Shown here: positions 4,702 to 28,087 of the stretch, one piece after another
Layout: each line of letters opens with the position of its first letter
Numbering within the stretch: position 1 is the stretch's first letter
Origin: an uncultured bacterium
GTDB taxonomy: Bacteria > Patescibacteriota > Minisyncoccia > UBA6257 > 2-01-FULL-56-20
Length of the DNA: 64,000 nucleotides
Assembly: GCA_963844965.1 (NCBI GenBank)
Contig: CAWJQC010000007.1
Location: forward strand, 64,001-128,000
Reading direction: 5' to 3'
Program-made: the position numbers and the translations under genes
Notes under the pieces: generated by a model
What the model was told of the DNA's origin: nothing
Seen by the model: the letters and a program-made list of their open reading frames with translations, nothing else
The model's database searches: none

Positions 4702-5748
4702 CTAATCGTCGCTTTCAGTGTCTGGTCCTTCAATCGCCATGGGCTCTATATTCATGCCTTCGCCGGTGATTTTCAGAACGTCTTTGTCCACTTTTTTCAG
4801 TTCTTTGTAGGCTTTTGTATACATTCCTACCGTTGTTCCGAGGTGTGTTCCCAATTTTTGCATGTAGGCATCGTAGCTCCCGAGATGTCTTCCCAATTCT
4901 TCCACGCGGGCGCGGATTTCCTTTGCCGATTCTTCAATTTGCATCGCCTTTAGTCCCTGGAGGACCGTTTGCAGATAGGCGAGAAACGAAGTGGGGGAGA
5001 CGATGATCACCTTCTTATCTTTTGTCGCGTACTCCACGAGGTCGCGCGTGTTCGCCTTTACCGAGCCGATTTTGTTGACGAGAAGATCGTAGTAAATGGC
5101 TTCGGAGGGGATGAACATGAAGGCGAAGTCCATCGTGCCTTCGTTGGGCTTGATGTATTTTGACGTTTCGTCAATTCTGGTTTTGAGGTCGTTTTTGAAT
5201 ACTTCCTCAAGTCGTTCCCGCTCGGCGTCATTTTTCGCTTCAAGAATGCGGTTGTAATTATCAAGACTGAATTTGGAATCAATCGGTATGATCCTGTCTT
5301 TTACGAAAATGATGGCATCCACAATCGTTCCGTCCTTGAATCCGTACTGCATTTGATACGTACCCGGCGGCATGACATTCTTCAAAACCGTTTCCAGGTA
5401 ATATTCGCCGAGTATCCCGCGCTGTTTCGGGTTTTTCAGGATATCCTGGAGATTTTTCAGCTGGTCGGTTATGTTCATGACCTGCTTTTGCCCTTCGCCC
5501 ACCTTTGTGAGCTCGGTCGTGATTTCCTTGATGATTTTGGCGCTTTCGCCGAATTGTTGCTGGATCACCTTCGTAGATTCGCCGAGTTTTGTATCAAGCG
5601 TGCGTGAGAGTTCATTGATTTGGTTCTGAATCAGTAGAAACGCCTGATCTTTTTGATCGGTTTTCTTGTGAGCTCTTACGAAATTCCAGAAGATGGCGAT
5701 TCCCGCAGCTAAGACTATTAAGACGATTATGAGGAGTATTGTTTCCAT
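4702..5748 (-). CDS. rmuC: DNA recombination protein RmuC
   Basis: N-terminal transmembrane segment, a long coiled coil, and a C-terminal RmuC-type domain (FAFMFIPSEAIYYDL). Confidence 0.8.
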   Translation of the reverse strand: METILLIIVLIVLAAGIAIFWNFVRAHKKTDQKDQAFLLIQNQINELSRTLDTKLGESTKVIQQQFGESAKIIKEITTELTKVGEGQKQVMNITDQLKNLQDILKNPKQRGILGEYYLETVLKNVMPPGTYQMQYGFKDGTIVDAIIFVKDRIIPIDSKFSLDNYNRILEAKNDAERERLEEVFKNDLKTRIDETSKYIKPNEGTMDFAFMFIPSEAIYYDLLVNKIGSVKANTRDLVEYATKDKKVIIVSPTSFLAYLQTVLQGLKAMQIEESAKEIRARVEELGRHLGSYDAYMQKLGTHLGTTVGMYTKAYKELKKVDKDVLKITGEGMNIEPMAIEGPDTESDD

Positions 5749-6499: not shown

Positions 6500-6805
6500 T
6501 TACCAACGTCCCTGTCCGCCGCCGTAACCGCCCCTGTCTCCGCGAGGAGCCCGGGGTTCTAACGGCCGCGCTTCGTTGACCGTGAGCGTGCGTCCGCCGA
6601 ATTCCTTTCCGTTCCACATTTCAATTGCCTTGTTTGCCTCATCGTCAGAGGACATCTCAACAAAGCCGAAGCCCTTGGAGCGGCCGGACATCTTGTCAAC
6701 GATTACCGTTGCCGAGGTGACCGTGCCGGCCTGGGCGAAGGCGTTTTGCAATTCGTCCTGCGTCGTAGAGTAGGGCAGACCGCCAACGTATAACTTCTTA
6801 GCCAT
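6500..6805 (-). CDS. Glycine-rich RNA-binding protein with an RRM domain
   Basis: RNP-1 motif KGFGFVEM and RNP-2 motif LYVGGL, with a C-terminal RGDRGGYGGGQGRW tail. A ~290-nt upstream region has no ORF and is likely a long 5' leader. Confidence 0.9.
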   Translation of the reverse strand: MAKKLYVGGLPYSTTQDELQNAFAQAGTVTSATVIVDKMSGRSKGFGFVEMSSDDEANKAIEMWNGKEFGGRTLTVNEARPLEPRAPRGDRGGYGGGQGRW

Positions 6806-8336: not shown

Positions 8337-8813
8337 TTACTGCTGTGGGTTTGCTTGCTGTCCGGGATTACCTGCGGGGCTATTGGTCGGCCGTATTTGT
8401 ATTGACTGCGCGGTTACGCTGCCGTCGGAATTGGCCGTGCCGACAACGGTTACATTTTCTCCCGTCGTGAGGTCGTCAAGAGTGCCGTTCACCGATTTCG
8501 TTATGGGCGTGGAGTTTGAGACAAGGACTATTTTCGTGGAATTCCCGGAACTTGTAGAACTGCCATTGCTCAATTCCACGATTATGCTCTGGTTATCTTT
8601 GGAGATAATTTGTCCGGATACGAATCCGCCGCTATTTCCTCCGCCGGATCCACCGTTCCTCATCCTTCCTGTTCCAAACCCTTGGCCTCCTGCCGATGTG
8701 CCGCTAGACGGACTTTTAGTTCCGGTTTGCGACTTGCCATATATCATGCCGCCGTAAAACACGGCTATCACAACTATGAGTGCGCCGACGATTGTAATGA
8801 TGCGTTTTTTCAT
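8337..8813 (-). CDS. Secreted / membrane-anchored hypothetical protein, paralogous to the 14311-14789 gene
   Basis: N-terminal signal anchor, a G/S-rich linker, and a C-terminal TGENVTVVGTANSDGSVTAQSIQI block shared with the 14311-14789 gene. Confidence 0.6.
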   Translation of the reverse strand: MKKRIITIVGALIVVIAVFYGGMIYGKSQTGTKSPSSGTSAGGQGFGTGRMRNGGSGGGNSGGFVSGQIISKDNQSIIVELSNGSSTSSGNSTKIVLVSNSTPITKSVNGTLDDLTTGENVTVVGTANSDGSVTAQSIQIRPTNSPAGNPGQQANPQQ

Positions 8814-16690: not shown

Positions 16691-19208
16691 ATGCGCAAAC
16701 AAGATGTTCTCGGGATAAGTTTGAGCGGGCTTTTTGGCGAATTGAGATCGTCCGAGAACGGTCTCACCGAAGAAGAAGCCGCCAAACGTTTTCGCGAGCA
16801 CGGTCCGAATATTCTCAAAAAAGAAGGCGTTAGCGCGCTCGGAGTTTTGCTTCGCCAATTCCAAAGCTCACTGATTTATCTTCTTGTCGCGGCGAGCGCG
16901 ATATCTTTTTGGATTAGGGATTATTCGGATGGGACGATTATCGCCGTTATTCTCCTCGTCAACGCCTCCCTGGGATTTTTTCAGGAATATAGATCGGAAA
17001 AGATCGTTGAGAAACTTTCAAAGTTTATCAGCCACCAAGTTCGCCTCAGGAGAAGCGGGCAGATTGTGTTATTGGACGAATCACGGATTGTTGTCGGAGA
17101 CGTGCTTGTCGTTCGCGAAGGCGATATTGTTCCGGCGGACATGCGGCTGTTTGAAGCCGACAATCTGGAAGTGAACGAGTCGCAGCTTACGGGCGAGTCG
17201 GTGCCGGTCGTTAAGCGTGTCTCAAATGATATCGCCAAAAATCCCGACTGCCTCGTTTTCACTGGCAGCGTCATTGAGAAAGGTGAGGGCGTTGGGATTG
17301 TCTATGCGATCGGCAACGACACGGAATTGGGAACTATCGCCAGGTTGTCAACGGAAACAAAGAAAGAAACGCAGTATGAGAAATCACTGCGGTCATTCAG
17401 TTCTTCTTTGATGAAAGTTGTTCTCCTCGGCTTGGCCCTGGTTTTCGCGCTCAAGTTGATTTTGAACGGAGGATTTTCAAACGCAGCGGGTCTTTTGCTT
17501 TTTATCATAGCCATGGCCGTTGCCGTGGTGCCCGAAGTTCTGCCGGTTATCGCCACGGTTACCTTGTCAAACGGAGCATTGAAACTCGCCAAAAGGCATG
17601 TGGTAGTTAAACGCCTGTCGTCGCTGGAGGATCTCGGCAATGTGGATTTGCTGTGCGCCGATAAGACAGGGACCATCACCGAAAACAGAATGGTCATAAA
17701 CAAAATTGTTTCCGCCGATGATAAATTGTTTCAGGAGCTTGCCTACGCCGCCATTACGCCCCTGAAAGGCAGAAAGAGAAGGATGCAGAATTCGTATGAC
17801 GACGCGTTCAACCGATATGTTTCCGACGCCGTGAGGAAAGAGGCGGTGAATTTCAGAGATCTTGAAAGAACTTCCTTTTGACCCGTATGACAGGAGAAGC
17901 CGGGTGGTGCTTGAGGATGCGGCGCACGGAAAACACTTTCTGCTTTCAATCGGCGCCCCCGAAGCGGTCTTTGAAATTAGCGGGAGCGAGCAAAAAGCGA
18001 AATATCTGGAAGACATCGCCGCGGAAGGCAGAAAAGGCCTGCATCATCTGGCGATAGCGTACAAGGAAGTATCATATGCTAACGATTTTGATATTTTGAA
18101 AAACGAACGCGATTTGAAATTCCTCGGATATGTGAGTTTAGAAGATCCGTTGCGGCCTACGGCCAAGAATACCGTTTACCTTGCCGAAAAACTTGGCATA
18201 AAAATCAAAATCCTGACGGGAGACAGCAAAGAGGTCGCCGAGTATGTCGGAAAGCAAATAGGGTTGGTGAAAGAGGGAGATAAAGAGGAAGATAAGGTGT
18301 ATCTCGGCGGCGAACTTGAGAAAATGTCGGAGGACGAATTCAGGACAGCCGTTCGGAGATGCAATGTGTTCGCCAGAGTTTCTCCGACCGATAAATACAA
18401 TATTATAAGGGCTCTCAAGGAAACTAATGTCGTCGGCTACGAGGGAGACGGCATCAATGACGCTCCGGCGCTGAAACTGGCGGACGTGGCGATCGCGGTC
18501 AACTCGGCCACGGACATCGCCAAGGAAAATTCCGACATTGTTCTTCTCAACAAAAGCCTTGAGGTCGTTATCAACGGCATAAAATACGGCAGGTCCATAT
18601 TCGTGAATATCAATAAGTATATTAAATACACCATGGTAAATAATTTTGGCACCTTTATTGCACTGGCCGTTTTATACTTGCTGTCTGCCTATTTACCAAT
18701 GCTCCCGATTCAAATACTTTTGACGAATGTGATTACAGACATTCCTCTCGTCACAATTTCGTCCGACACGGTTGAAGATGTAGAAGTAGTGCGGCCGGAA
18801 AAACACAATACGAAAGAACTGGTGTTCATCTCGCTTATTCTGGGAATTCCAACGGCTTTTTTTGAACTTCTCTACTTCTTGATTATCCGCTCACATCCCC
18901 GAGAGTTCGTGGCAACAGGCCTTTACGTCTTCCTTACCTTCTTGGCATTAATTGTTTTCTATGCGATAAGAAACAAAGAAAATTTCTGGAAAACAAAGCA
19001 GCCATCCCGTCTTTTGAACGTCTCTTTTGTGCTCGCTTTTGTCTTCTCGCTCGCGATCATTTATATGCCCCAGTTTCAGGCGTGGTTTTCCTTCGTGCCG
19101 TTGCCCGCGGCGTCGGTGATTGTCATTCTAATTCTGATGGTGCTCTACCTTTTCGCGGTGGATTTCGTCAAGGTGAGGTATTACAAGTTTTCTGCGGGGG
19201 AGAAATGA
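16691..19208 (+). pseudogene. P-type cation-transporting ATPase split by an apparent frameshift near 17855
   Basis: ORF1 (16691-17881) carries TGESVPV and DKTGTIT. ORF2 (17862-19208, TTG start) carries ELPFDPYDRR, GDGINDAPAL and C-terminal transmembrane helices. The two ORFs overlap by 20 nt in different frames. Confidence 0.75.
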
Positions 19209-19862: not shown

Positions 19863-19969
19863 GCAAAAGGGAAGTCACAGTTTGTGCACCGATTTCCTTA
19901 CACAAAATTAAAAAATATTGCTTGCTATGACAACAGGAATCGAACCTAAAATTGGAAGCCCCCGATATC

Positions 19970-20030
19970 CAGAGGCTATTATAAGTGTCCTTTCAGATAG
20001 AAATTATATGGAAAATCTGCATTTTAAATT
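19970..20030 (+). repeat. Copy 1 of a ~65-bp direct repeat (CCAGARGCTATTATAAGTGTC...AATTATATGGAAAATCTG...)
   Basis: About 85% identical to the copy at 22484-22545. Preceded 20 nt upstream by a tRNA T-arm-like motif (GGTTCGATTCC on the minus strand). Confidence 0.7.
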
Positions 20031-20296
20031 CTGTTTCATAAAGGCGTTACAACGCTCAGAAACGGCACATTAACGGCGGCAAGAAATTATTATAACAAAG
20101 GACCTCTTCTTGCGCGGCATAGTAGACGACGCTAGAGCCGTCATCCAGCGATAAAATGAGTATATTTACATCCCAAATTTGAGGGCAGAAGCAATGAGGG
20201 TATAATTTCACCTACTGCATTATTCACTATTTCTCTTGCCATAATATCCTGCGCTTGACACCTGTTTTTAATTTTTGGAAGGGATATAATTATATT

Positions 20297-20572
20297 ATGA
20301 ATAAAAAATTACTAATAAGCGTCTTAGGTGTCTTCGTGTTATTAATTTTAGGCCTAGCCGGTTATTATTTGTGGTTTTATAAAAAACCAATGTCTCCTAC
20401 CGCCGAACAAGCGGTTACGGATATTCAAAAAACGGTTCAGTCTATTGATCAGAATGTAGCCGGGAGTGTTTTCGGCACCACAACGGCTAATCCAATGGAG
20501 AATGTCCCCGATGTTAATCCCTATAAAAATACCAACCCATTTTCAGATATTAAAACCAATCCTTTTCAATAA
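20297..20572 (+). CDS. Small signal-anchored protein with a C-terminal NPY/NPF-repeat tail
   Basis: Begins MNKKLLISVLGVFVLLILGLAGYYLW, a transmembrane anchor. A TATAAT box lies 7 nt upstream. Confidence 0.55.
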   Translation: MNKKLLISVLGVFVLLILGLAGYYLWFYKKPMSPTAEQAVTDIQKTVQSIDQNVAGSVFGTTTANPMENVPDVNPYKNTNPFSDIKTNPFQ

Positions 20573-20577
20573 AAACT

Positions 20578-22263
20578 ATGAATAAAAAAACTTTAAGCGT
20601 ATTGATACTAATTTCTTCAGTAATGATCTCCGGTGTTATTGTCGGTTCGGCGATGGCGCAGACCCCGGCCGATCAAAGTACGACAACTTTATCCGCAAGT
20701 ATCACGTATCCGATTCCGGAATTGGGCAATTGTCAAAGTCAGGCGGATTGTAAAACCTTTTGCGACGATACCAAGAATACCGATGCCTGTTTGGCTTTTG
20801 CCCAAGCCAATAATTTAATGAGTTCCGACCAAGTGGCTGCCGCTAAAAAATTTGCGGATAGCGGAATGGTTGGTCCGGGCGGATGCAAGGGAGAAACCGA
20901 ATGCGACACGTATTGCGGCGATACGAGCCACATAGAAGAGTGTATTACGTTTGCGCAAAATAACGGATTGATGTCCGAACAAAAGCTACAGGAATCGCAA
21001 AAGGTTTTGGCAGCCATTAAAACAGGTGTCAAACCTTTGGGCTGCAATAGTGAGCAGGAATGTGAAGCATATTGTGCGACCGCTGAACATATGGAGGAGT
21101 GCATAAATTTCGGCACCGAGGCAGGAATATTGCCGGCTCAGGATCAGGAGAATGCGCGCAAAGTTTTGACCGCTATAAAAAATGGTGCCGTGCCTCCGTG
21201 CGAAGGTGATGCGTGTCCGGCTTTTTGCAGCAAACCGCAGAACGCGGATGCTTGCGAGAAGTTCCGTATCGAGGCTGGAATTCCGTCACGCTCCGAAATG
21301 ATAGTAGTTCAGGCAATACTTACTCTTATAGCAAAAGGAACTACTATGTCTACTTGCAGCGGTGCGCAAGGATGCCAGGATTATTGTTCTCAAGATGCCC
21401 ATGCTGAAGAATGCGCTAAATTTGCCGAGGATAATGGGGCGATTACGTCTTCAGAGGCAGAAGCAGCTATAGGCGGAGAAGCAGCGCCCGAAGGACCGGG
21501 TGGATGTAAGACTAAAGACGAGTGCGATGCTTATTGCAATAATCCGGATAATTCCGAAACTTGCTTTAATTATGCCAAGGATAACGGACTGATTTCCTCG
21601 GAAGACCTAAAGAAAATAGAAGATAGCCAGCAGCAAATGAAAGATTCTTTTAATAATATGCCCGCAGAGATATTAACCTGTTTAACTACTTCTTTAGGCG
21701 CAGACACGGTTGAAAAATTAAAAAGCGGAAACGCTATACCAGATCAGAAAACGGCCGAACAAATGAAGACTTGTTTTGACCAATACACTCCAACCGCTCC
21801 AACCGCTCCGGCTGGTCCGGGGAGTCAAGCCGGACAAAATCAGGGCGGACAAGGACAGGGTGGCGGAGGAGGTGGCAACGGTGGTGGTAGCGGCGGAGGT
21901 AGTGGCGGGGGAGGACAGGGCCAAGGTAACCAACCAACCCAACCTACTCAACCGAGCCAACCTATGCAACCAACCCAACCTACTCAACCGGGCCAGCCGA
22001 CTCAGCCCAGCCAACCATCACAGCTACTACCTCAGACGGGCCCCGGTGGATGCAAAACCATCGAAGAATGTAAGACGTATTGCCAGGCGCATCCGGAAGC
22101 TAAAACAGAGTGTCAGCAATTTAAGCAGAGTCAACAGGGACAATCTGGACAGAATCAGCCGACGCAAGGCCCGAATAATCAACAACCCAGTCAACCCAGC
22201 CAGCCGACTCCACCGCAACCTCCGACTCAGCCTACTCCACCAAGTCAACCAAGCCCGCCATAA
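20578..22263 (+). CDS. Secreted cysteine-rich repeat protein with a G-rich and (PTQ)n-rich C-terminal tail
   Basis: Signal peptide followed by at least six ~40-aa repeats of the pattern GGCKxxxECDxYCx6-8CxxFAxxNGLxS. Then a GGGGGNGGGSGGGSGGGG stretch and PTQPTQPSQP repeats. Confidence 0.8.
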   Translation: MNKKTLSVLILISSVMISGVIVGSAMAQTPADQSTTTLSASITYPIPELGNCQSQADCKTFCDDTKNTDACLAFAQANNLMSSDQVAAAKKFADSGMVGPGGCKGETECDTYCGDTSHIEECITFAQNNGLMSEQKLQESQKVLAAIKTGVKPLGCNSEQECEAYCATAEHMEECINFGTEAGILPAQDQENARKVLTAIKNGAVPPCEGDACPAFCSKPQNADACEKFRIEAGIPSRSEMIVVQAILTLIAKGTTMSTCSGAQGCQDYCSQDAHAEECAKFAEDNGAITSSEAEAAIGGEAAPEGPGGCKTKDECDAYCNNPDNSETCFNYAKDNGLISSEDLKKIEDSQQQMKDSFNNMPAEILTCLTTSLGADTVEKLKSGNAIPDQKTAEQMKTCFDQYTPTAPTAPAGPGSQAGQNQGGQGQGGGGGGNGGGSGGGSGGGGQGQGNQPTQPTQPSQPMQPTQPTQPGQPTQPSQPSQLLPQTGPGGCKTIEECKTYCQAHPEAKTECQQFKQSQQGQSGQNQPTQGPNNQQPSQPSQPTPPQPPTQPTPPSQPSPP

Positions 22264-22483
22264 CAACCAACTCCACCACAACTGCCGACTCCGCCAAGCA
22301 GTTTCTTGCGACAAACGCAGAAGTTTTTAGGGAGCATCTTGGATGTATTCACGAGGTAAGGATTTTTGCAATAAAATAGATTGTTATTCCTCCCGGCCCT
22401 CTCCTTCGGTTCGAATCCAGACTGTCAAAACGAGAAATAAAAATGAACGGCGCAAGACCGTTCATTTTTATTTTAGCTCCAGG

Positions 22484-22545
22484 TTCCAGAAGCTATTATA
22501 AGTGTCTTATCGGATAGGAATTATATGGAAAATCTGTATTCCAAG
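22484..22545 (+). repeat. Copy 2 of the ~65-bp direct repeat
   Basis: Aligns with 19970-20030. It lies 43 bp from the IS3 copy A end and is preceded by a bidirectional hairpin terminator (22437-22470) and a T-arm-like GGTTCGAATCCAG motif. Confidence 0.7.
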
Positions 22546-22644
22546 TTTTACATTTTGAGGGAGATGGAGCGGTTGGAAATATCTAAATGTAAAGGATAGG
22601 TTTCTTTAGACAGTGATTCGACGGCTTTTTGCCGTTTTTTTTCG

Positions 22645-23427
22645 TTAAGCCGCAATCTTCTCGGCAAACACGGACGGCGGCATCTTGAGGGCGGAGTGGA
22701 TCCGCGTGTGGTTGTACTGCCACAAGGTGCTGTAGATCTCCGCCACGAGCTCGCCGAAGGTCCCGAACCGGTTGGGATCACCGAGGTCAATCTTGAACTT
22801 GTCATAGAACGATTCCTGGTAGCCGTTTTCCCATGGGGCACCGGGCCGCGACCGCGAGATCGTGATGCCACAGTCCCCCAGTGTATCGGTGAACGCTCGT
22901 GCCTTGTACTCGCTGCCGTTGTCCGAATGGAAGATGACCGGATGCGGATGGTGGAAAAGCGCGTTGGCCAGGGTCTGTATCGTGAGGGGCGATCCTTTCC
23001 GCAACGCCACATGGACGCCCATCAATCGTCTCGTGAAAAGATCGAGTATCGTGGACACGTACACTTTCTTGCCGCGATACAGGAACTCCGTGAAATCGGT
23101 TGCCCAGACGTGGTTCGCGTACGAGGGCATGATGGCAAGTAAGAGGTTCGGAAAGGCCCGCGATGCCTTTGATTTCCGGTATTTCCTGCCTCGCCTCCGG
23201 TACGGCCTTATGCCGAAGATTCGCATGACGCGCTGCGCTCGCGGACGGCTCACGCCCAGAGCTTGTCCCAAGCGCCGGGAACCGTATGCCGGATGGCGCT
23301 GCAATTCTTCTTCCATGCGGATCTTGAGCGCCCAATCTTTCTTGTCCTGCCGTGATACGTAGTAGAGCGATGCCCGCGAGACGCCCATGGCCCGCGCCAT
23401 GGCGGACTTGTTCCGCTTTTCCGTCAA
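22645..23427 (-). CDS. IS3-family transposase OrfB (DDE integrase, rve domain)
   Basis: HSDNGSEYKARAF...PGAPWENGYQESFY rve-type DDE motif. Confidence 0.9.
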   Translation of the reverse strand: MTEKRNKSAMARAMGVSRASLYYVSRQDKKDWALKIRMEEELQRHPAYGSRRLGQALGVSRPRAQRVMRIFGIRPYRRRGRKYRKSKASRAFPNLLLAIMPSYANHVWATDFTEFLYRGKKVYVSTILDLFTRRLMGVHVALRKGSPLTIQTLANALFHHPHPVIFHSDNGSEYKARAFTDTLGDCGITISRSRPGAPWENGYQESFYDKFKIDLGDPNRFGTFGELVAEIYSTLWQYNHTRIHSALKMPPSVFAEKIAA

Positions 23428-23687
23428 TTCTTTTTTTGGGCCTGGGAGAGCTTCACGGTGAGCTCGCCCACCACTTCAAACAGCTCCCTGTTCTGCTTCT
23501 GGAGACGGCTGAACTCGCCCCAGGAAGGGACGCCCGATGCTCCTGCGCCTAGCCAATTGTAGATGGTGGACTCGTGCAAACCGTGGTCCTTCGCAGCCTG
23601 CGCTACGGGGACTCCTTCTTCCTTCACCCGGCGGAGGATGTCCGCCTTCACTTCCTTCGCAATCCGATGCCCTTTTTTGTTGCTCAT
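23424..23687 (-). CDS. IS3-family transposase OrfA (HTH)
   Basis: HTH segment VPVAQAAKDHGLHESTIYNWL. The ORF ends at an A AAA AAG slippery site that overlaps the start of orfB. Confidence 0.85.
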   Translation of the reverse strand: MSNKKGHRIAKEVKADILRRVKEEGVPVAQAAKDHGLHESTIYNWLGAGASGVPSWGEFSRLQKQNRELFEVVGELTVKLSQAQKKN

Positions 23688-23741
23688 GACACAATGGTAG
23701 TTTGTTTCGACCTTTGTGTCTAAATTATCCTATCCGGGTCA

Positions 23742-23773
23742 ACCTTTGTGTCTAAATTATCCTATCCGGGTCA
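23742..23773. repeat. 32-bp tandem duplication of the IS3 left terminal repeat
   Basis: CCTTTGTGTCTAAATTATCCTATCCGGGTCA occurs twice in tandem at 23711-23741 and 23743-23773. Confidence 0.8.
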
Positions 23774-23777
23774 AGTG

Positions 23778-23951
23778 ATGGTTGATTTAAGTAAGCTCTA
23801 TCCCGATATTGATATTGCCGAAACGCTCTCGAACCTAACGGGAAAATGGATCAAGACAATCAAGGGCAATAAGGTTGAATTTTCTGATGGTAGCGAGATA
23901 GATACAAGCGATATGGATTACAAACTTATTAAGCCATTGATTTGGTGGTAA
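23778..23951 (+). CDS. 57-aa ORF whose N-terminus resembles that of the downstream helicase (possible 5' duplicate fragment)
   Basis: MVDLSKLYPDIDIAETL...GKW versus MSKLYLQDIVEDIPFDDLPAKW in the next gene. It overlaps that gene's start by 10 nt. Confidence 0.35.
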   Translation: MVDLSKLYPDIDIAETLSNLTGKWIKTIKGNKVEFSDGSEIDTSDMDYKLIKPLIWW

Positions 23952-23953
23952 AT

Positions 23954-26650
23954 ATGTCGAAGTTGTATTTACAAGACATAGTTGAGGACATCCCGTTTGA
24001 TGATCTGCCCGCGAAATGGCAGGACTTTGACTTCGGCAGGTTTTCTTCCGATAAAACACTATTTGGCTTCCAGCAAAATGGCTTACGGAACGCTCTGAAA
24101 GCGCTCTGGCTTTTTTATAAAGATAGGAAGGGAAACAAAATAGAGCTTTATGAACAATATAAGGCAAATGGCTTGGGCGCGGATTTTGATTATGATTTGA
24201 CGCGAGAAAGAAAAGCCGCTGACCATCTTTTGGAATTTGATACGGATTATCCGAAAACAGACGGCAAAATTGCTTTTGCCCACTTCTTAAACCGCATGAG
24301 CTTTTGGATGGCTACGGGCTCTGGAAAGACGCTGATTATCGTAAAACTCATTGATATGCTCGGCGCTTTAATGAGGCAAAAAGAGATTCCTCAAAACGAT
24401 ATTCTGTTCTTGGCTCATAGGGACGACCTTTTGGAACAATTCAAAAATCATGTGGATCAATTCAATAGCTTCAATTTTGAAACAAGAATCAACTTCAAGA
24501 GCTTGAAAGATTATGAGAGCGTCAAGCGCGAGAACGCTCTGCCATTTGCAAAAAACGAGATAACGGTATTCTACTACCGCTCGGATTTAATATCAGACGA
24601 GCACAAAGAAAAAATTGTCAATTTCAAAAATTATGATAACGGCGGCAAGTGGTATGTTCTTCTCGATGAGGCGCACAAAGGCGATAGAGAGGACAGCAAA
24701 AGACAGATTCTATATTCAATCCTTTCAAGAAGCGGCTTTCTGTTCAATTTTTCCGCTACCTTTACCGATCCGCGGGATTACGCAACCTGTGCCTTTAATT
24801 TCAATCTTTCAAAATTCATTGAGGATGGTTACGGCAAGCATATTTATGTATCAAGCGCGGAAGTAACGGCTTTCCGCGATCAAGACGACTTCTCAAAAAT
24901 TACGAAGCAGAAAATCGTTTTGAAAACGCTGATACTGCTTACATATATCAATAAGTATTTTGAGAAGGTTCGGAAACAGGATAAAAAGCTGTATCATCGC
25001 CCACTCCTTCTTACTCTCGTCAATTCCGTTGATACGAAAGATGCGGACTTAAAGCTGTTCTTTTCCGAACTGGAAAAGATAGCCAAAAATGAAATAAGAG
25101 GCGACTTGATTGAAAAAGCCAAAGAGGAACTCATAAAAGAATTTGAAGAAAATCCGCAATATGAATTTGAGGGCATAAATGTAGAGATTGATAAGGCCTC
25201 GCTCAAAAAAATCTGCTATAAGGATATTTTGAAGCAGATTTTCAACGCAAAATCTTCTGGTAATATCGAGGTTTTGAAAATTCCGAATAACAGAAACGAA
25301 ATAATCTTTAAGCTGCAAACTTCTGAAAAACCATTCGGGCTGATTAAGATCGGGGATATTTCGGGATGGCTTAAGGAAACGCTTGAGGGTTATGAAATAA
25401 TCGAGAGCTTTGAGAATGAAAGCGTATTTAAGCGGATCAACCACGATGACTCCGAAATTAACATTCTGATGGGCTCCCGTGCCTTTTACGAGGGCTGGGA
25501 CTCAAACAGGCCGAACATTCTCTTATTCGTAAATATCGGCATCGGAAGCGACGCAAAGAAGTTTGTCCTGCAATCCGTTGGCCGAGGCGTAAGAATTGAA
25601 CCGCAAAAGAATAAACGGAAAAGAATTTTGGAATTGCACAACGCAAAAGAAATAAAGACAGAGCTATTTAATAAAATCCGAAGCAATATACAAGCGCTTG
25701 AGAGCTTGTTCGTATTCGGAACAAACGCCGATAATCTGAAGGAAATAATCAAGGCGCTGAAAGAAGAAAAACAAGAGCAAGATTTAGGTGCCGAATTTAT
25801 TATAAATAAAGATGCTGAAAAACGGCTGTTGCTTATACCTACTTACCGAGAATCGGAAAAGATATTTGCCGAAGAAAAAGAGCCGCAGAAATACGGAATC
25901 AGCCGAGAGGACTTGGCACTCGCAAAATCAATGTTCAGCTATCTTGGCGATAAAGTAACTCTGGCAAAATTTGAGTGTGAAGTAAGGGTTATTAAAAAGA
26001 CAGCCGAGAGTTTTGAAACAGCCGAGCAATACTTTGACCTTAACGAGGAGAGGTCAATTTCCGAGCCAGATTTGCTGGTTGATAGGATACTGGACTACTT
26101 CAGCGTCAGGGATAAAGAATTTGATAAATTCAAAAAACTGGAAAACGAGATCGTCCACTTCAAGCGGATAAGGTTTAATGACGGCGAGAAGTTTGAAGAA
26201 ATAAAACAGAAAATCGGCAAAATAAAGGAGTATCCAGAAAGACAGCGAGAACTGGATAAACAATACGGAAAAATATCGCGGGAAGAATTTGCGAGAAAGC
26301 AGGCGAGTTTGTTTGACGCGCAGACCTTTGAATACAAGAGCAAAAAGCTAAAAATCAAATATATCCAAAACCATTACTACATTCCTCTGATTATTTCAGA
26401 AAATGAAAAAGTTGATTATCTCAACCACATTATTGATGTTGAAAGCGAAGTCCGTTTCATAGAACAATTGGAAGAATACCTACAGCAGGACGACAATGTA
26501 TTCAAACAATTTGATTGGTGGATGTTCTCAAAGCTCGATCAAACGCTGGACGAAGTTCATGTGCCGTATTACAGCCCAAAAGAAAACAATATGGCAAGGT
26601 TTAAGCCCGACTTTATCTTCTGGCTGCAAAAGGTGACCCGGATAGGATAA
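23954..26650 (+). CDS. SF2 helicase / Type III restriction Res-like protein (DEAH box), C-terminally truncated by IS3 copy B
   Basis: Motif I MATGSGKT, motif II LLDEAHKG, and motif VI QSVGRGVR. The C-terminus ...FKPDFIFWLQK runs 17 nt into the IS terminal repeat and stops (KVTRIG*), as if the PD-(D/E)xK nuclease motif were cut off. Confidence 0.7.
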   Translation: MSKLYLQDIVEDIPFDDLPAKWQDFDFGRFSSDKTLFGFQQNGLRNALKALWLFYKDRKGNKIELYEQYKANGLGADFDYDLTRERKAADHLLEFDTDYPKTDGKIAFAHFLNRMSFWMATGSGKTLIIVKLIDMLGALMRQKEIPQNDILFLAHRDDLLEQFKNHVDQFNSFNFETRINFKSLKDYESVKRENALPFAKNEITVFYYRSDLISDEHKEKIVNFKNYDNGGKWYVLLDEAHKGDREDSKRQILYSILSRSGFLFNFSATFTDPRDYATCAFNFNLSKFIEDGYGKHIYVSSAEVTAFRDQDDFSKITKQKIVLKTLILLTYINKYFEKVRKQDKKLYHRPLLLTLVNSVDTKDADLKLFFSELEKIAKNEIRGDLIEKAKEELIKEFEENPQYEFEGINVEIDKASLKKICYKDILKQIFNAKSSGNIEVLKIPNNRNEIIFKLQTSEKPFGLIKIGDISGWLKETLEGYEIIESFENESVFKRINHDDSEINILMGSRAFYEGWDSNRPNILLFVNIGIGSDAKKFVLQSVGRGVRIEPQKNKRKRILELHNAKEIKTELFNKIRSNIQALESLFVFGTNADNLKEIIKALKEEKQEQDLGAEFIINKDAEKRLLLIPTYRESEKIFAEEKEPQKYGISREDLALAKSMFSYLGDKVTLAKFECEVRVIKKTAESFETAEQYFDLNEERSISEPDLLVDRILDYFSVRDKEFDKFKKLENEIVHFKRIRFNDGEKFEEIKQKIGKIKEYPERQRELDKQYGKISREEFARKQASLFDAQTFEYKSKKLKIKYIQNHYYIPLIISENEKVDYLNHIIDVESEVRFIEQLEEYLQQDDNVFKQFDWWMFSKLDQTLDEVHVPYYSPKENNMARFKPDFIFWLQKVTRIG

Positions 26651-26687
26651 TTTAGACACAAAGGTCGAAACAAACTACCATTGTGTC

Positions 26688-26951
26688 ATGAGCAACAAAA
26701 AAGGGCATCGGATTGCGAAGGAAGTGAAGGCGGACATCCTCCGCCGGGTGAAGGAAGAAGGAGTCCCCGTAGCGCAGGCTGCGAAGGACCACGGTTTGCA
26801 CGAGTCCACCATCTACAATTGGCTAGGCGCAGGAGCATCGGGCGTCCCTTCCTGGGGCGAGTTCAGCCGTCTCCAGAAGCAGAACAGGGAGCTGTTTGAA
26901 GTGGTGGGCGAGCTCACCGTGAAGCTCTCCCAGGCCCAAAAAAAGAATTGA
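26688..26951 (+). CDS. IS3-family transposase OrfA (HTH)
   Basis: Identical to the product of 23424-23687. Confidence 0.85.
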   Translation: MSNKKGHRIAKEVKADILRRVKEEGVPVAQAAKDHGLHESTIYNWLGAGASGVPSWGEFSRLQKQNRELFEVVGELTVKLSQAQKKN

Positions 26952-27730
26952 CGGAAAAGCGGAACAAGTCCGCCATGGCGCGGGCCATGGGCGTCTCGCG
27001 GGCATCGCTCTACTACGTATCACGGCAGGACAAGAAAGATTGGGCGCTCAAGATCCGCATGGAAGAAGAATTGCAGCGCCATCCGGCATACGGTTCCCGG
27101 CGCTTGGGACAAGCTCTGGGCGTGAGCCGTCCGCGAGCGCAGCGCGTCATGCGAATCTTCGGCATAAGGCCGTACCGGAGGCGAGGCAGGAAATACCGGA
27201 AATCAAAGGCATCGCGGGCCTTTCCGAACCTCTTACTTGCCATCATGCCCTCGTACGCGAACCACGTCTGGGCAACCGATTTCACGGAGTTCCTGTATCG
27301 CGGCAAGAAAGTGTACGTGTCCACGATACTCGATCTTTTCACGAGACGATTGATGGGCGTCCATGTGGCGTTGCGGAAAGGATCGCCCCTCACGATACAG
27401 ACCCTGGCCAACGCGCTTTTCCACCATCCGCATCCGGTCATCTTCCATTCGGACAACGGCAGCGAGTACAAGGCACGAGCGTTCACCGATACACTGGGGG
27501 ACTGTGGCATCACGATCTCGCGGTCGCGGCCCGGTGCCCCATGGGAAAACGGCTACCAGGAATCGTTCTATGACAAGTTCAAGATTGACCTCGGTGATCC
27601 CAACCGGTTCGGGACCTTCGGCGAGCTCGTGGCGGAGATCTACAGCACCTTGTGGCAGTACAACCACACGCGGATCCACTCCGCCCTCAAGATGCCGCCG
27701 TCCGTGTTTGCCGAGAAGATTGCGGCTTAA
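26948..27730 (+). CDS. IS3-family transposase OrfB (DDE)
   Basis: Identical to the product of 22645-23427. Probably expressed as an OrfAB fusion through a -1 frameshift. Confidence 0.9.
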   Translation: MTEKRNKSAMARAMGVSRASLYYVSRQDKKDWALKIRMEEELQRHPAYGSRRLGQALGVSRPRAQRVMRIFGIRPYRRRGRKYRKSKASRAFPNLLLAIMPSYANHVWATDFTEFLYRGKKVYVSTILDLFTRRLMGVHVALRKGSPLTIQTLANALFHHPHPVIFHSDNGSEYKARAFTDTLGDCGITISRSRPGAPWENGYQESFYDKFKIDLGDPNRFGTFGELVAEIYSTLWQYNHTRIHSALKMPPSVFAEKIAA

Positions 27731-27861
27731 CGAAAAAAAACGGCAAAAAGCCGTCGAATCACTGTCTAAAGAAACCTATCCTTTACATCGGGCAAAAAGT
27801 TAGAGTTTACAATGCGAAAACCGTTTGATGCGGTCCTCGAATTGGCTACTTGTCCAACTGG

Positions 27862-27933
27862 GCTCCGGCGCCTGGATTCGAACCAGGAACCTTCTCCTTA
27901 ACAGGGAGCCGCTCTACCGTTGAGCTACGCCGG
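27862..27933 (-). tRNA. tRNA-Asn (GTT anticodon)
   Basis: Cloverleaf with acceptor TCCGGCG/CGCCGGA, D-arm GCTC-AACGGTA-GAGC, anticodon loop CTGTTAA, and T-arm CCTGG-TTCGAAT-CCAGG. The first base is U1, as in E. coli tRNA-Asn. CCA is not encoded. Confidence 0.8.
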
Positions 27934-28087
27934 AATCCTTATTCTTATTAATGTATCAAAAAAACAGATTTTTTTCAATCTCGCCAGCCGCAATGCTGCG
28001 AGATCATACTTTAATGTTGAAAAAAAAGAAAAAAGCCGAGTGGTTGGAAAAGTTAGGAAAGGCGGCGTAAAAATTAAAACGTCCCGG

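Follow-up and report, generated by a model that had tools for sequence, protein, structure and literature searches.

The window, as we call the whole 64-kb stretch of DNA that was analysed, carries a small gene (gene 1) followed by a large one (gene 2). The locus contains the following features, in addition to the parts of gene 2 given further below:

19968..20030 (+): upstream copy of a 63-nt direct repeat, 86% identical to the downstream copy
20179..20206 (+): promoter-like site TTGAGG-16-TATAAT, a weak match from a consensus scan (10/12 positions), ~90 nt upstream of gene 1
20297..20572 (+): gene 1, ORF for a predicted bitopic membrane protein of 91 residues with an NP[F/Y] tail; homologues lie directly upstream of gene 2 in 83 related loci
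20309..20374 (+): putative hydrophobic signal-anchor helix of gene 1, residues 5-26, LLISVLGVFVLLILGLAGYYLW, from Kyte-Doolittle hydropathy
20486..20569 (+): C-terminal tail of gene 1, residues 64-91, with four N-P-x turns reaching the C-terminus; the most conserved part of gene 1
20578..22263 (+): gene 2, ORF for a putatively exported four-Cys helical-repeat protein, with more than 1435 full-length homologues at ~45% identity
22261..22263 (+): in-frame TAA, a premature end of the ORF; the same codon is CAA (Gln) in a locus of 89% identity (L086)
22264..22359 (+): cryptic continuation of the ORF, QPTPPQLPTPPSSFLRQTQKFLGSILDVFTR*, corresponding to the conserved C-terminal amphipathic tail of the family and fitting the consensus PPxS-x9-G-x5-F
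22435..22473 (no strand assigned): perfect 16-bp hairpin between A/T runs, found as an inverted repeat, with a terminator-like match on the minus strand
22485..22547 (+): downstream copy of the 63-nt direct repeat, 40 nt ahead of an IS3-family element

As terminated in this genome, the gene 2 ORF encodes a protein of 561 residues. The parts that characterize its family, from the signal peptide through six tandem modules, a two-Cys helical cap and a spacer to a seventh module, are all present in the window protein, which ends in a Pro-rich segment:

20578..20658 (+): Sec-type signal peptide, residues 1-27 (...GSAMA/Q), read from the sequence; A27 in at least 90% of sequences
20716..20868 (+): module 1, residues 47-97, Cys 52/58/62/71, helices 55-63, 65-77 and 83-94; mean column conservation 0.64
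20869..21027 (+): module 2, residues 98-150, Cys 103/109/113/122
21028..21183 (+): module 3, residues 151-202, Cys 156/162/166/175, three helices
21184..21339 (+): module 4, residues 203-254, the variant C-x4-C-x3-C-x8-C, Cys 208/213/217/226, three helices
21340..21489 (+): module 5, residues 255-304, Cys 260/266/270/279, helical
21490..21645 (+): module 6, residues 305-356, Cys 310/316/320/329
21646..21792 (+): helical cap domain of ~50 residues with one Cys pair, C368/C399; helices 363-373, 375-382 and 390-403, pLDDT ~90
21793..22035 (+): disordered Gly/Gln-rich and P-T-Q-P spacer, residues 406-486, pLDDT <50, conservation 0.24
22036..22137 (+): module 7, residues 487-520, C-x5-C-x3-C-x9-C without the third helix, Cys 492/498/502/512; helices 495-504 and 506-523, pLDDT 80-92
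22138..22260 (+): Gln/Pro-rich C-terminal segment, read from the sequence, pLDDT <50

A sequence-only reading of this DNA had described a signal peptide followed by at least six four-Cys repeats, a poly-Gly stretch and PTQ repeats, and most of this description holds. The signal peptide is N-terminal, its A-x-A-Q site is kept across the gene 2 family and it has no twin arginine. The poly-Gly and PTQ sequences lie at residues 406-486, where the DNA carries 9-nt periodic repeats. Six modules indeed stand in tandem, and a regular-expression search together with alignment revealed the seventh after the low-complexity spacer. Module 6 is the most conserved module, with a mean column conservation of 0.74, the highest of all gene 2 segments; the cap ranks with it among the best-conserved parts. 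The two-Cys helical domain (Cys 368 and 399) was absent from the earlier description; in an alignment of 95 members C368 is invariant and C399 is present in at least 90% of sequences.

The dimensions of the repeat had to be revised. The earlier spacing, C-x5-C-x3-C-x7-C, is one residue short in its last gap: C-x5-C-x3-C-x8-C is the spacing in 545 of the 558 modules compared across 95 members of the family. Rather than ~40 residues, the period is ~52, made up of a conserved 35-residue core and a linker helix. In a six-frame translation of the 64 kb the exact Cys pattern occurs five times, always within the gene 2 ORF. The Cys residues are almost never lost: of the 1931 complete modules compared in 263 relatives, 1930 retain all four. 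In the alignment of 95 members every Cys of modules 1, 2, 5 and 6 is invariant, and those of the other modules are present in at least 90% of sequences. With just 1 of 1931 modules short of any Cys, co-loss gave no signal about disulfide connectivity.

Structure prediction of one repeat, which the sequence-only reading had suggested, gave a well-defined three-helix module. Module 2, modelled alone from a 60-module alignment, reached a pLDDT of 92 and a pTM of 0.70, with helices at 9-16, 19-31 and 37-51, and the module fold is thus predicted to be all-helical. In this model C1 lies in a loop, C2 and C3 are spaced i/i+4 within helix A, and C4 is in helix B. The AF2 model of the whole gene 2 product has pLDDT values of ~90 in the modules and cap and <50 in the spacer and tails, and the signal peptide lies outside the fold with low pLDDT. 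Because the pTM of the whole model is only 0.49, the arrangement of the modules relative to one another, as a rod or a superhelix, is uncertain.

That the protein is extracellular, and stabilised by disulfides or by metal, is suggested by its signal peptide and by Cys residues that are invariant and even in number. The metal alternative would make the modules Cys4 metal or cluster sites, and gene 2 a seven-site extracytoplasmic metal-binding, metal-buffering or redox protein docked at the membrane by the small protein. Four invariant Cys at fixed spacing in every module would suit such sites, as would the His that is often conserved four residues ahead of C4 (consensus H-x-E-E-C), and these organisms are often anaerobes, in which disulfides are less expected. 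However, the signal is of Sec type and lacks a twin arginine, which makes export of a cofactor-loaded protein unlikely given what is established for Tat, and an i/i+4 pair such as C2/C3 within one helix is unusual for tetrahedral Zn(Cys)4. Furthermore, each gene 2 domain has an even number of Cys and the cap conserves exactly two, which is compatible with a disulfide and not with a four-ligand metal site. Since no metal-binding family was matched in Pfam, NCBIfam or the PDB either, we regard metal sites as improbable. If the Cys form disulfides, C1 probably pairs with C3 and C2 with C4, given that C2 and C3 are one turn apart in helix A, C4 is in helix B and C1 is in the preceding loop.

The sequence-only reading had not recognised the module, and our searches bear this out: no known family was matched in Pfam, NCBIfam, PDB profile or Foldseek searches, and none of the searches run gave a confident hit to an established Cys-rich domain family, the finding that reading had named as evidence against it. 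A Pfam scan of the 561-residue protein at E<=10 returned 0 families, and NCBIfam gave merely sub-threshold noise. With both proteins as queries, Pfam, NCBIfam, PHROGs and PADLOC yielded nothing significant; the marginal NCBIfam, PHROG and CD34/FliL-type matches are far under the cut-offs and were set aside as reflecting the transmembrane helix or composition. PDB sequence searches with whole-family and single-module profiles found just noise at E>0.5 (poly-Q, a Tic110 helix, designed proteins). Pfam gave no match in the window protein to known Cys-rich extracellular domains, including Kazal, defensin-like and ADAM10 Cys-rich domains. Pfam matches to these three types in three homologues were rejected as sporadic and marginal, and leave the module array uncovered; the Kazal match in homologue P0041 (residues 503-547), outside the six-module array, is the sole real matched stretch of the three. 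We found no description of the gene 2 family in the literature; one paper mentions, without detail, a secreted cysteine-rich protein in Roizmanbacteria.

We also considered whether gene 2, instead of containing a new module, could have diverged very far from a helical-repeat family that is already known (Sel1-like/Helicobacter cysteine-rich or TPR). Hcp proteins are likewise secreted, disulfide-bridged alpha repeats, and the top structural neighbours from Foldseek, although not significant (best E-value against the PDB 0.2), are helical-repeat proteins (PPR/TPR, AlgK, CTR9, CstF-77, PlcR and AimR). However, the Pfam Sel1, TPR and PPR families are unmatched even at E<=10, and the unit of 52 residues with three helices and four Cys differs from the known 34-36 residues, two helices and zero or two Cys. 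We therefore find membership of such a family very improbable.

The gene 2 family comprises 1857 clusters at 50% identity, all in genomes labelled Patescibacteria, and 360 loci in a one-genome-per-species collection. Its architecture is kept end to end in the full-length homologues and each module position retains its own signature across them, while the number of modules ranges from 6 to 13 depending on the lineage. The two-gene locus recognised by the sequence-only reading is equally constant: wherever a related locus includes upstream sequence, gene 1 lies immediately upstream of gene 2, with a gap of -26 to +152 nt (median ~5 nt), and the pairing is obligatory. No other neighbour of the pair is conserved, the next best gene cluster occurring in 11 of 84 loci, and a DsbA-like gene is found nearby in just 4 of 84. 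Past the ancestral end of the ORF, the hairpin at 22435..22473 is likely a bidirectional terminator. The pair is real, widely conserved and completely uncharacterised in these ultra-small (Patescibacteria/CPR) bacteria.

The flanking 63-nt repeats, which had been read as bracketing the locus, do so in this genome, where they are present in two copies only in the 64-kb window, but they are not a feature of the family. We examined whether they mark a mobile cassette: only 4 of 71 related loci are flanked by comparable repeats, and the sequence of the closest relative departs from that of the window directly behind the gene. We therefore rejected the repeats as characteristic of the family. tRNA-like T-arm strings adjoin both copies, and neither ARAGORN nor Rfam found a tRNA there.

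The upstream ORF proved to be, as previously read, a small NP[F/Y]-tailed membrane protein; its hydrophobic helix is N-terminal and its tail reads ANPMENVPDVNPYKNTNPFSDIKTNPFQ. An identical small gene occurs in the raw reads ERR10755942. In its 83 homologues the best 19-residue window has a mean Kyte-Doolittle hydropathy of 2.56, and among 34 aligned pairs N and P are invariant in the last three N-P-x motifs. The 45 database homologues are all 67-98 residues long; none has a meaningful name and none is a natural fusion of gene 1 with gene 2. The net charge flanking the hydrophobic helix is +1.5 N-terminally and +1.2 C-terminally; these values do not settle its orientation, and the tail could therefore be cytoplasmic.

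The DNA alignment with the closest relative (L086) indicates that a CAA-to-TAA nonsense codon removes the conserved C-terminal helix of gene 2 in the window. This amphipathic tail, PPxSxF-x6-LGxxLxxF[KR], is found in 72 of 94 homologues and absent from 22, and in the window it is still encoded in frame behind the TAA. It has a hydrophobic moment of 0.63-0.69 and a mean hydrophobicity near 0, and its last residue is usually K, R or H. Because the helix is cut off in the window and is also missing from the closest relative, it appears to be dispensable at least in this lineage. The C-terminal 45 residues of 95 members contain no LPXTG, PEP or GlyGly sorting signal, and their hydrophobic stretch is short and amphipathic.

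The loss of this helix in 22 of 94 homologues and in the window could also mean that the large protein is released, as an effector, adhesin or inhibitor directed at hosts or competitors, and that the small protein is an export, maturation or immunity factor and not a tether. An effector role is common among secreted repeat proteins rich in Cys, the Helicobacter Hcp proteins being one example; in addition, one homologue has a Kazal-type inhibitor domain near its C-terminus, and the module number varies from lineage to lineage. On the other hand, full-length orthology at ~45% identity, position-specific module signatures and one conserved partner across many candidate phyla look more like a housekeeping envelope component than a fast-evolving effector, and proteins that are anchored and span the wall are likewise laid out with a Pro-rich spacer ahead of an amphipathic helix at the end. 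We consider a released effector unlikely.

We tentatively favour a role for the pair as a lineage-specific two-gene envelope operon of Patescibacteria that builds a disulfide-stapled rod as a cell-surface scaffold, tethered by the NP[F/Y] tail of gene 1, by the C-terminal amphipathic helix or by both. The gene 2 product would leave the cell by Sec and fold outside the membrane into six tandem three-helix modules, each probably locked by two disulfides, as the invariant C-x5-C-x3-C-x8-C pattern suggests. The two-Cys helical domain would cap the six modules to complete a rigid, oxidation-stabilised alpha-helical rod or solenoid. Against such disulfides stands the anoxic water that many Patescibacteria inhabit, in which a dedicated oxidase is required for disulfides to form, and the scarcity of DsbA-like genes near the pair. 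The disordered spacer of ~80 residues (Gly/Gln/Pro-Thr) could act as a flexible stalk that spans the wall, followed by the seventh module and the Pro-rich segment, and the C-terminal amphipathic helix would in most relatives hold the protein at the membrane surface. The gene 1 product would be signal-anchored, with an extracytoplasmic tail of three to four invariant N-P-(F/Y) turns running up to its C-terminus. We hypothesize that the helical repeats bind this tail as a short linear motif and that gene 1 thereby tethers or organises the large subunit; the complex may then provide the CPR cell surface with a structural or adhesive scaffold. A more specific and rather doubtful proposal is that the six-module array is a new bacterial peptide-recognition repeat whose ligand is the co-encoded N-P-(F/Y) tail, forming a Patescibacteria-specific envelope tether for the cell surface or for episymbiotic attachment.

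Patescibacteria account for a large part of bacterial diversity, and the majority are believed to be attached to other cells; to our knowledge, almost nothing is known of their surface proteins. The gene pair occurs in many candidate phyla, is absent from all curated family libraries tested, and has a confidently predicted fold without a solved relative. If it does form an envelope scaffold or tether, it would offer a defined and testable way into CPR surface biology: the proteins are expressible, a short peptide ligand and a content of about 15 disulfides are predicted, and TNPFSDIKTNPFQ and ANPMENVPDVNPYKNTNPFSDIKTNPFQ are candidate ligand peptides. The pair is also a candidate lineage marker and the module could be registered as a new domain family.

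Several known systems share parts of this design. HcpA, HcpB and HcpC (Sel1-like, PF08238) are Sec-exported proteins of tandem alpha-helical repeats that form a disulfide-stapled solenoid, the concave face of which is thought to bind ligands. The gene 2 product resembles them in its predicted Sec export, tandem helical repeats, probable disulfides in each repeat and possible solenoid shape. However, Hcp repeats have ~36 residues, two helices and one disulfide, whereas the gene 2 unit has ~52 residues, three helices and four invariant Cys, and the Hcp proteins are not accompanied by an obligatory small membrane protein, as gene 2 is. The SEL1 profile (PF08238) does not match the 561-residue protein at Pfam E<=10, nor is there a significant fold match; similarly, neither family profiles nor significant fold similarity identify the 34/35-residue helix-turn-helix of TPR/PPR repeats. 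The twin CX9C (CHCH) and twin CX3C (small Tim) proteins are small helical units that fold oxidatively after translocation, two disulfides between regularly spaced Cys linking their helices, and the module would resemble them in this. In contrast to the module, their two antiparallel helices carry two Cys each, where here the spacing is x5/x3/x8 and just C2 and C3 share a helix; they are single mitochondrial hairpins, not tandem arrays, and have no sequence match with the module. Gram-positive wall-spanning surface proteins share the order of parts, with a signal peptide, a folded head, a low-complexity Pro/Thr/Gly spacer and a C-terminal membrane-proximal element. Gene 2 differs from these in lacking LPXTG or any known sorting motif, in having a short amphipathic helix as its terminal element, and in placing a seventh module between its two low-complexity segments. 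Finally, TPR clamps (Hop TPR1/2A with EEVD-COOH) and EH domains (NPF) are helical modules that recognise short linear motifs, as proposed here for the gene 1 tail, the clamps acting at the extreme C-terminus of the partner and EH domains recognising an Asn-Pro-Phe turn. This parallel is an analogy only: Pfam and PDB searches show no homology, and Pfam finds no EF-hand or EH profile in the gene 2 product. Whereas those examples are cytosolic, eukaryotic and disulfide-free, recognition of the tail by the array would be comparable to TPR/EEVD or EH/NPF binding but take place outside the cytoplasm, in a protein hardened by disulfides.

The gene pair and its surroundings comprise the following features.

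20297..20572, + strand: small gene, ORF of 91 aa, ending 5 nt before the large gene
20578..22263, + strand: large gene, ORF of 561 aa
22261-22263, + strand: in-frame stop TAA ending the large ORF; CAA in L086, the closest relative's locus
22261-22359, + strand: cryptic tail region; the TAA falls 31 codons short of the ORF end, with the tail intact downstream
22435-22473: perfect 16-bp hairpin downstream of the putative ancestral ORF end
19968-20030 and 22485-22547: 63-nt direct repeat, 86% identity, only two copies in the window

The large protein opens with a hydrophobic segment, MNKKTLSVLILISSVMISGVIVGSAMA, with Q at the predicted cleavage site. Seven four-Cys modules were located by pattern search: modules 1-6 run in tandem, with C1 at residues 52, 103, 156, 208, 260 and 310, and module 7 (C1 at 492) lies downstream of a low-complexity spacer at residues 406-486, Gly/Gln-rich and then composed of P-T-Q-P repeats, which is visible in the DNA as 9-nt periodic repeats. 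An extra pair, Cys 368 and Cys 399, lies between module 6 and the spacer. The sequence-only reading had proposed at least six repeats of ~40 aa with a final spacing of x7, followed by a poly-Gly stretch and PTQ repeats; the count and the low-complexity region hold, the latter preceding module 7, but the actual spacing is C-x5-C-x3-C-x8-C and the period ~52 aa. All five occurrences of the exact Cys pattern in a six-frame translation of the 64-kb window fall within the large ORF, and the repeated four-Cys module is therefore confirmed with these small corrections.

An AlphaFold2 model of the large protein, built with a 95-sequence alignment, gave pLDDT ~90 for residues 40-405 and 488-520; values in the signal peptide, the spacer and the tails were <50. 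All folded parts are alpha-helical, with three helices per module, and the whole-model pTM of 0.49 makes the relative arrangement of the modules uncertain. A single module modelled with 60 aligned modules likewise gave three helices (9-16, 19-31 and 37-51; pLDDT 92, pTM 0.70): helix A holds C2 and C3, separated by one turn, helix B holds C4, and C1 falls in the loop that leads into helix A. Because of this placement, the disulfide pairs within a module would be C1-C3 and C2-C4. Alternatively, the module cysteines could form Cys4 metal sites. However, the protein carries a Sec-type signal peptide, every domain has an even number of Cys, one domain, the cap, has a single conserved Cys pair, and two of the four module Cys lie at i/i+4 in one helix; these four points favour disulfides and leave metal sites improbable.

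Searches with the large protein returned zero Pfam matches at E<=10, nothing but far sub-threshold noise in NCBIfam, no meaningful match in PHROGs or PADLOC, and no match in PDB sequence profile searches. Foldseek against the PDB listed designed and natural PPR/TPR solenoids at TM 0.1-0.2, with a best E of 0.21. Literature searches turned up no description of this four-Cys repeat family, and the initial impression of an unrecognised module is borne out in that none of these databases matched it confidently to any known Cys-rich domain. Pfam matches in three homologues were marginal and sporadic and were set aside.

A database search with residues 1-430 matched >1435 proteins. Query coverage among the best 120 is 73-100%, mostly at 40-50% identity, and nearly all are 450-750 aa long. 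Their sources annotate them as 'hypothetical', and those that are named carry Patescibacteria lineage labels. The entire architecture is conserved in a 95-member alignment, in the order A-x-A-Q signal-peptidase site, six modules each retaining its own signature, 2-Cys domain, variable spacer, seventh module and Pro-rich end. The x5/x3/x8 spacing is found in 545 of 558 modules, and all four Cys are kept in 1930 of the 1931 complete modules of 263 family proteins. Among 1.84 billion representative proteins, a single-module profile matched 1857 clusters at E<=1e-3, of which 999 reach E<=1e-30. The top matches hold 6-13 modules, and the module occurs almost exclusively in this family. A one-genome-per-species collection holds 360 loci with a relative, named ones being labelled Paceibacterota, Nomura-, Yanofsky-, Jorgensen-, Wolfe-, Staskawicz-, Nealson-, Lloyd-, Gribaldo-, Niyogi-, Taylor-, Wildermuth-, Azam-, Magasanik- and Peregrinibacteria.

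Some homologues (from loci L007, L021, L078 and L082, and proteins P0128, P0134 and P0041) have long Pro/Gln/Gly-rich insertions between module C1 and C2, with C1 kept, and some have 10-13 modules and lengths up to 1431-1555 aa. P0041 also contains a Kazal-type inhibitor domain at residues 503-547. An ARAGORN call of a 95-nt 'tRNA-Stop (anticodon tta)' in L021, at 6710-6804 (-), falls within the coding sequence of the large-gene homologue on the other strand and is probably spurious.

The small protein consists of an N-terminal MNKK, a ~22-residue hydrophobic helix, a variable helical stretch and the tail ANPMENVPDVNPYKNTNPFSDIKTNPFQ; the charge bias around the helix does not settle its topology. 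The first four homologous contigs have an 89-100-aa ORF of the same layout directly upstream of the large gene, with differing neighbours otherwise. Among the fetched loci, the small ORF was found in 83 (L054 included) and is absent only where the contig starts at the large gene; the gap between the genes is -26 to +152 nt (median ~5). All-against-all clustering of neighbouring ORFs showed only these two genes to be conserved, the next cluster occurring in 11 of 84 loci. The proposed two-gene locus thus stands, as a self-contained two-gene operon. Every homologue of the small protein is 67-98 aa long; no fusions and no meaningful names occur among them. Conservation is highest in the last 28 residues, and 34 aligned pairs show no variation at the N and P of three N-P-x turns.

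At the other end of the large protein, 72 of 94 homologues finish with PPxSxF-x6-LGxxLxxF and then K, R or H, an amphipathic stretch. The 31 in-frame codons after the window's TAA read QPTPPQLPTPPSSFLRQTQKFLGSILDVFTR and a stop, fitting this consensus exactly, with a hydrophobic moment of 0.63-0.69, and L086 (89% identity) has CAA at the stop position. The TAA as read therefore appears to be a C-to-T nonsense change removing the conserved tail, and the ancestral ORF would have extended to 22359, with the hairpin at 22435-22473 a likely terminator. In L086 the sequence diverges shortly ahead of the tail, so this locus has no tail either, and the tail would thus be dispensable in this lineage. 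The P-type cation ATPase at 16691-19208 is split into overlapping ORFs, 16691-17881 (N-terminal and E1-E2 domains) and 17862-19208 (hydrolase and C-terminal domains), probably by a frameshift, and is thus, next to the TAA, a further sign of decaying genes or erroneous sequence close to the pair.

The best-supported reading, which we hold tentatively, is an exported, disulfide-stapled rod on a spacer, held via an amphipathic helix and/or the partner's tail. Sec would export the large protein, and oxidative folding would shape the cap and the six modules, each stapled by two disulfides, into a rigid helical rod displayed on a flexible wall-spanning spacer. Membrane retention could come from the C-terminal amphipathic helix and/or binding of the partner's N-P-(F/Y) tail, much as TPR clamps hold C-terminal peptides or EH domains hold NPF, and the complex may have a structural or adhesive role in the CPR envelope. 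That the large protein is instead a released effector, with the small protein as its helper, we consider unlikely. Against the rod reading, many of these organisms are anaerobes, and only 4 of 84 loci have a DsbA-like gene close to the pair. Upstream of the pair in L005, at a distance of 3-5 kb (923-2879), are genes for a DsbA/thioredoxin-like protein, a glutaredoxin and a thioredoxin-reductase-like protein; across the 84 loci, DsbA-like and glutaredoxin clusters recur near the pair in just 4-5, which makes the link to disulfide formation a weak hint at most.

The direct repeats that were thought to bracket the locus are real in the window, but are not a family feature: only 4 of 71 related loci have comparable flanking repeats of at least 49 nt, and the 63-nt repeat is absent downstream of the gene in L086. 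The repeats are local and do not belong to the gene pair as such, and are possibly connected with the IS element starting 40 nt further on. The pair in L007 is likewise flanked by direct repeats (5480-5551 and 8356-8427; 63-72 nt and 86% identity across the window and L007), one copy overlapping a tRNA-Gln gene at the gene's 3' end. Of 60 loci scanned, roughly 21 have a tRNA gene within ~0.7 kb of the pair (L001, L005-L007, L010-L012, L026, L036, L044, L045, L050, L053-L055, L066, L067, L069, L073-L075), far above chance spacing; the tRNA species vary, with Lys and Arg on either side of the pair in one clade and Gln, Asn, Thr, His and Ala in others. T-arm-like strings, GGAATCGAACC near 19945 and GGTTCGAATCC near 22431, adjoin both 63-nt copies in the window, and no tRNA was called at either. 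Further downstream, two IS3-family elements (22587-23748 and 26627-27788; 1162 nt each, 100% identical, inverted), whose ORFs carry HTH_Tnp_1 plus rve, flank a lower-GC gene for a 902-aa ResIII/DEAD helicase (23942-26650), the last codons of which enter the second copy. The arrangement is composite-transposon-like and adjoins tRNA-Asn (27859-27935). A 32-nt unit is tandemly duplicated (23707-23770, 97% identity) across the first copy's end at 23748, with one unit inside the IS (23707-23738) and the other spanning the boundary (23739-23770).

We rate these proteins as a new family of helical-repeat proteins, probably disulfide-rich and at the cell surface, with which a small membrane protein is obligatorily paired. 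The four-Cys repeat would merit a domain-family entry, and the gene pair, with its inferred function, is conserved, lineage-defining and tractable to experiment. With no profile or significant fold match to Sel1-like proteins, the large protein is not a member of that group, and that it is a very divergent Sel1/TPR protein is highly improbable. Its closest known analogue is nevertheless found in the Helicobacter cysteine-rich, Sel1-like repeat proteins, which are secreted alpha-repeat solenoids with disulfide bridges, although the unit here differs from theirs in length, helix number and Cys number.
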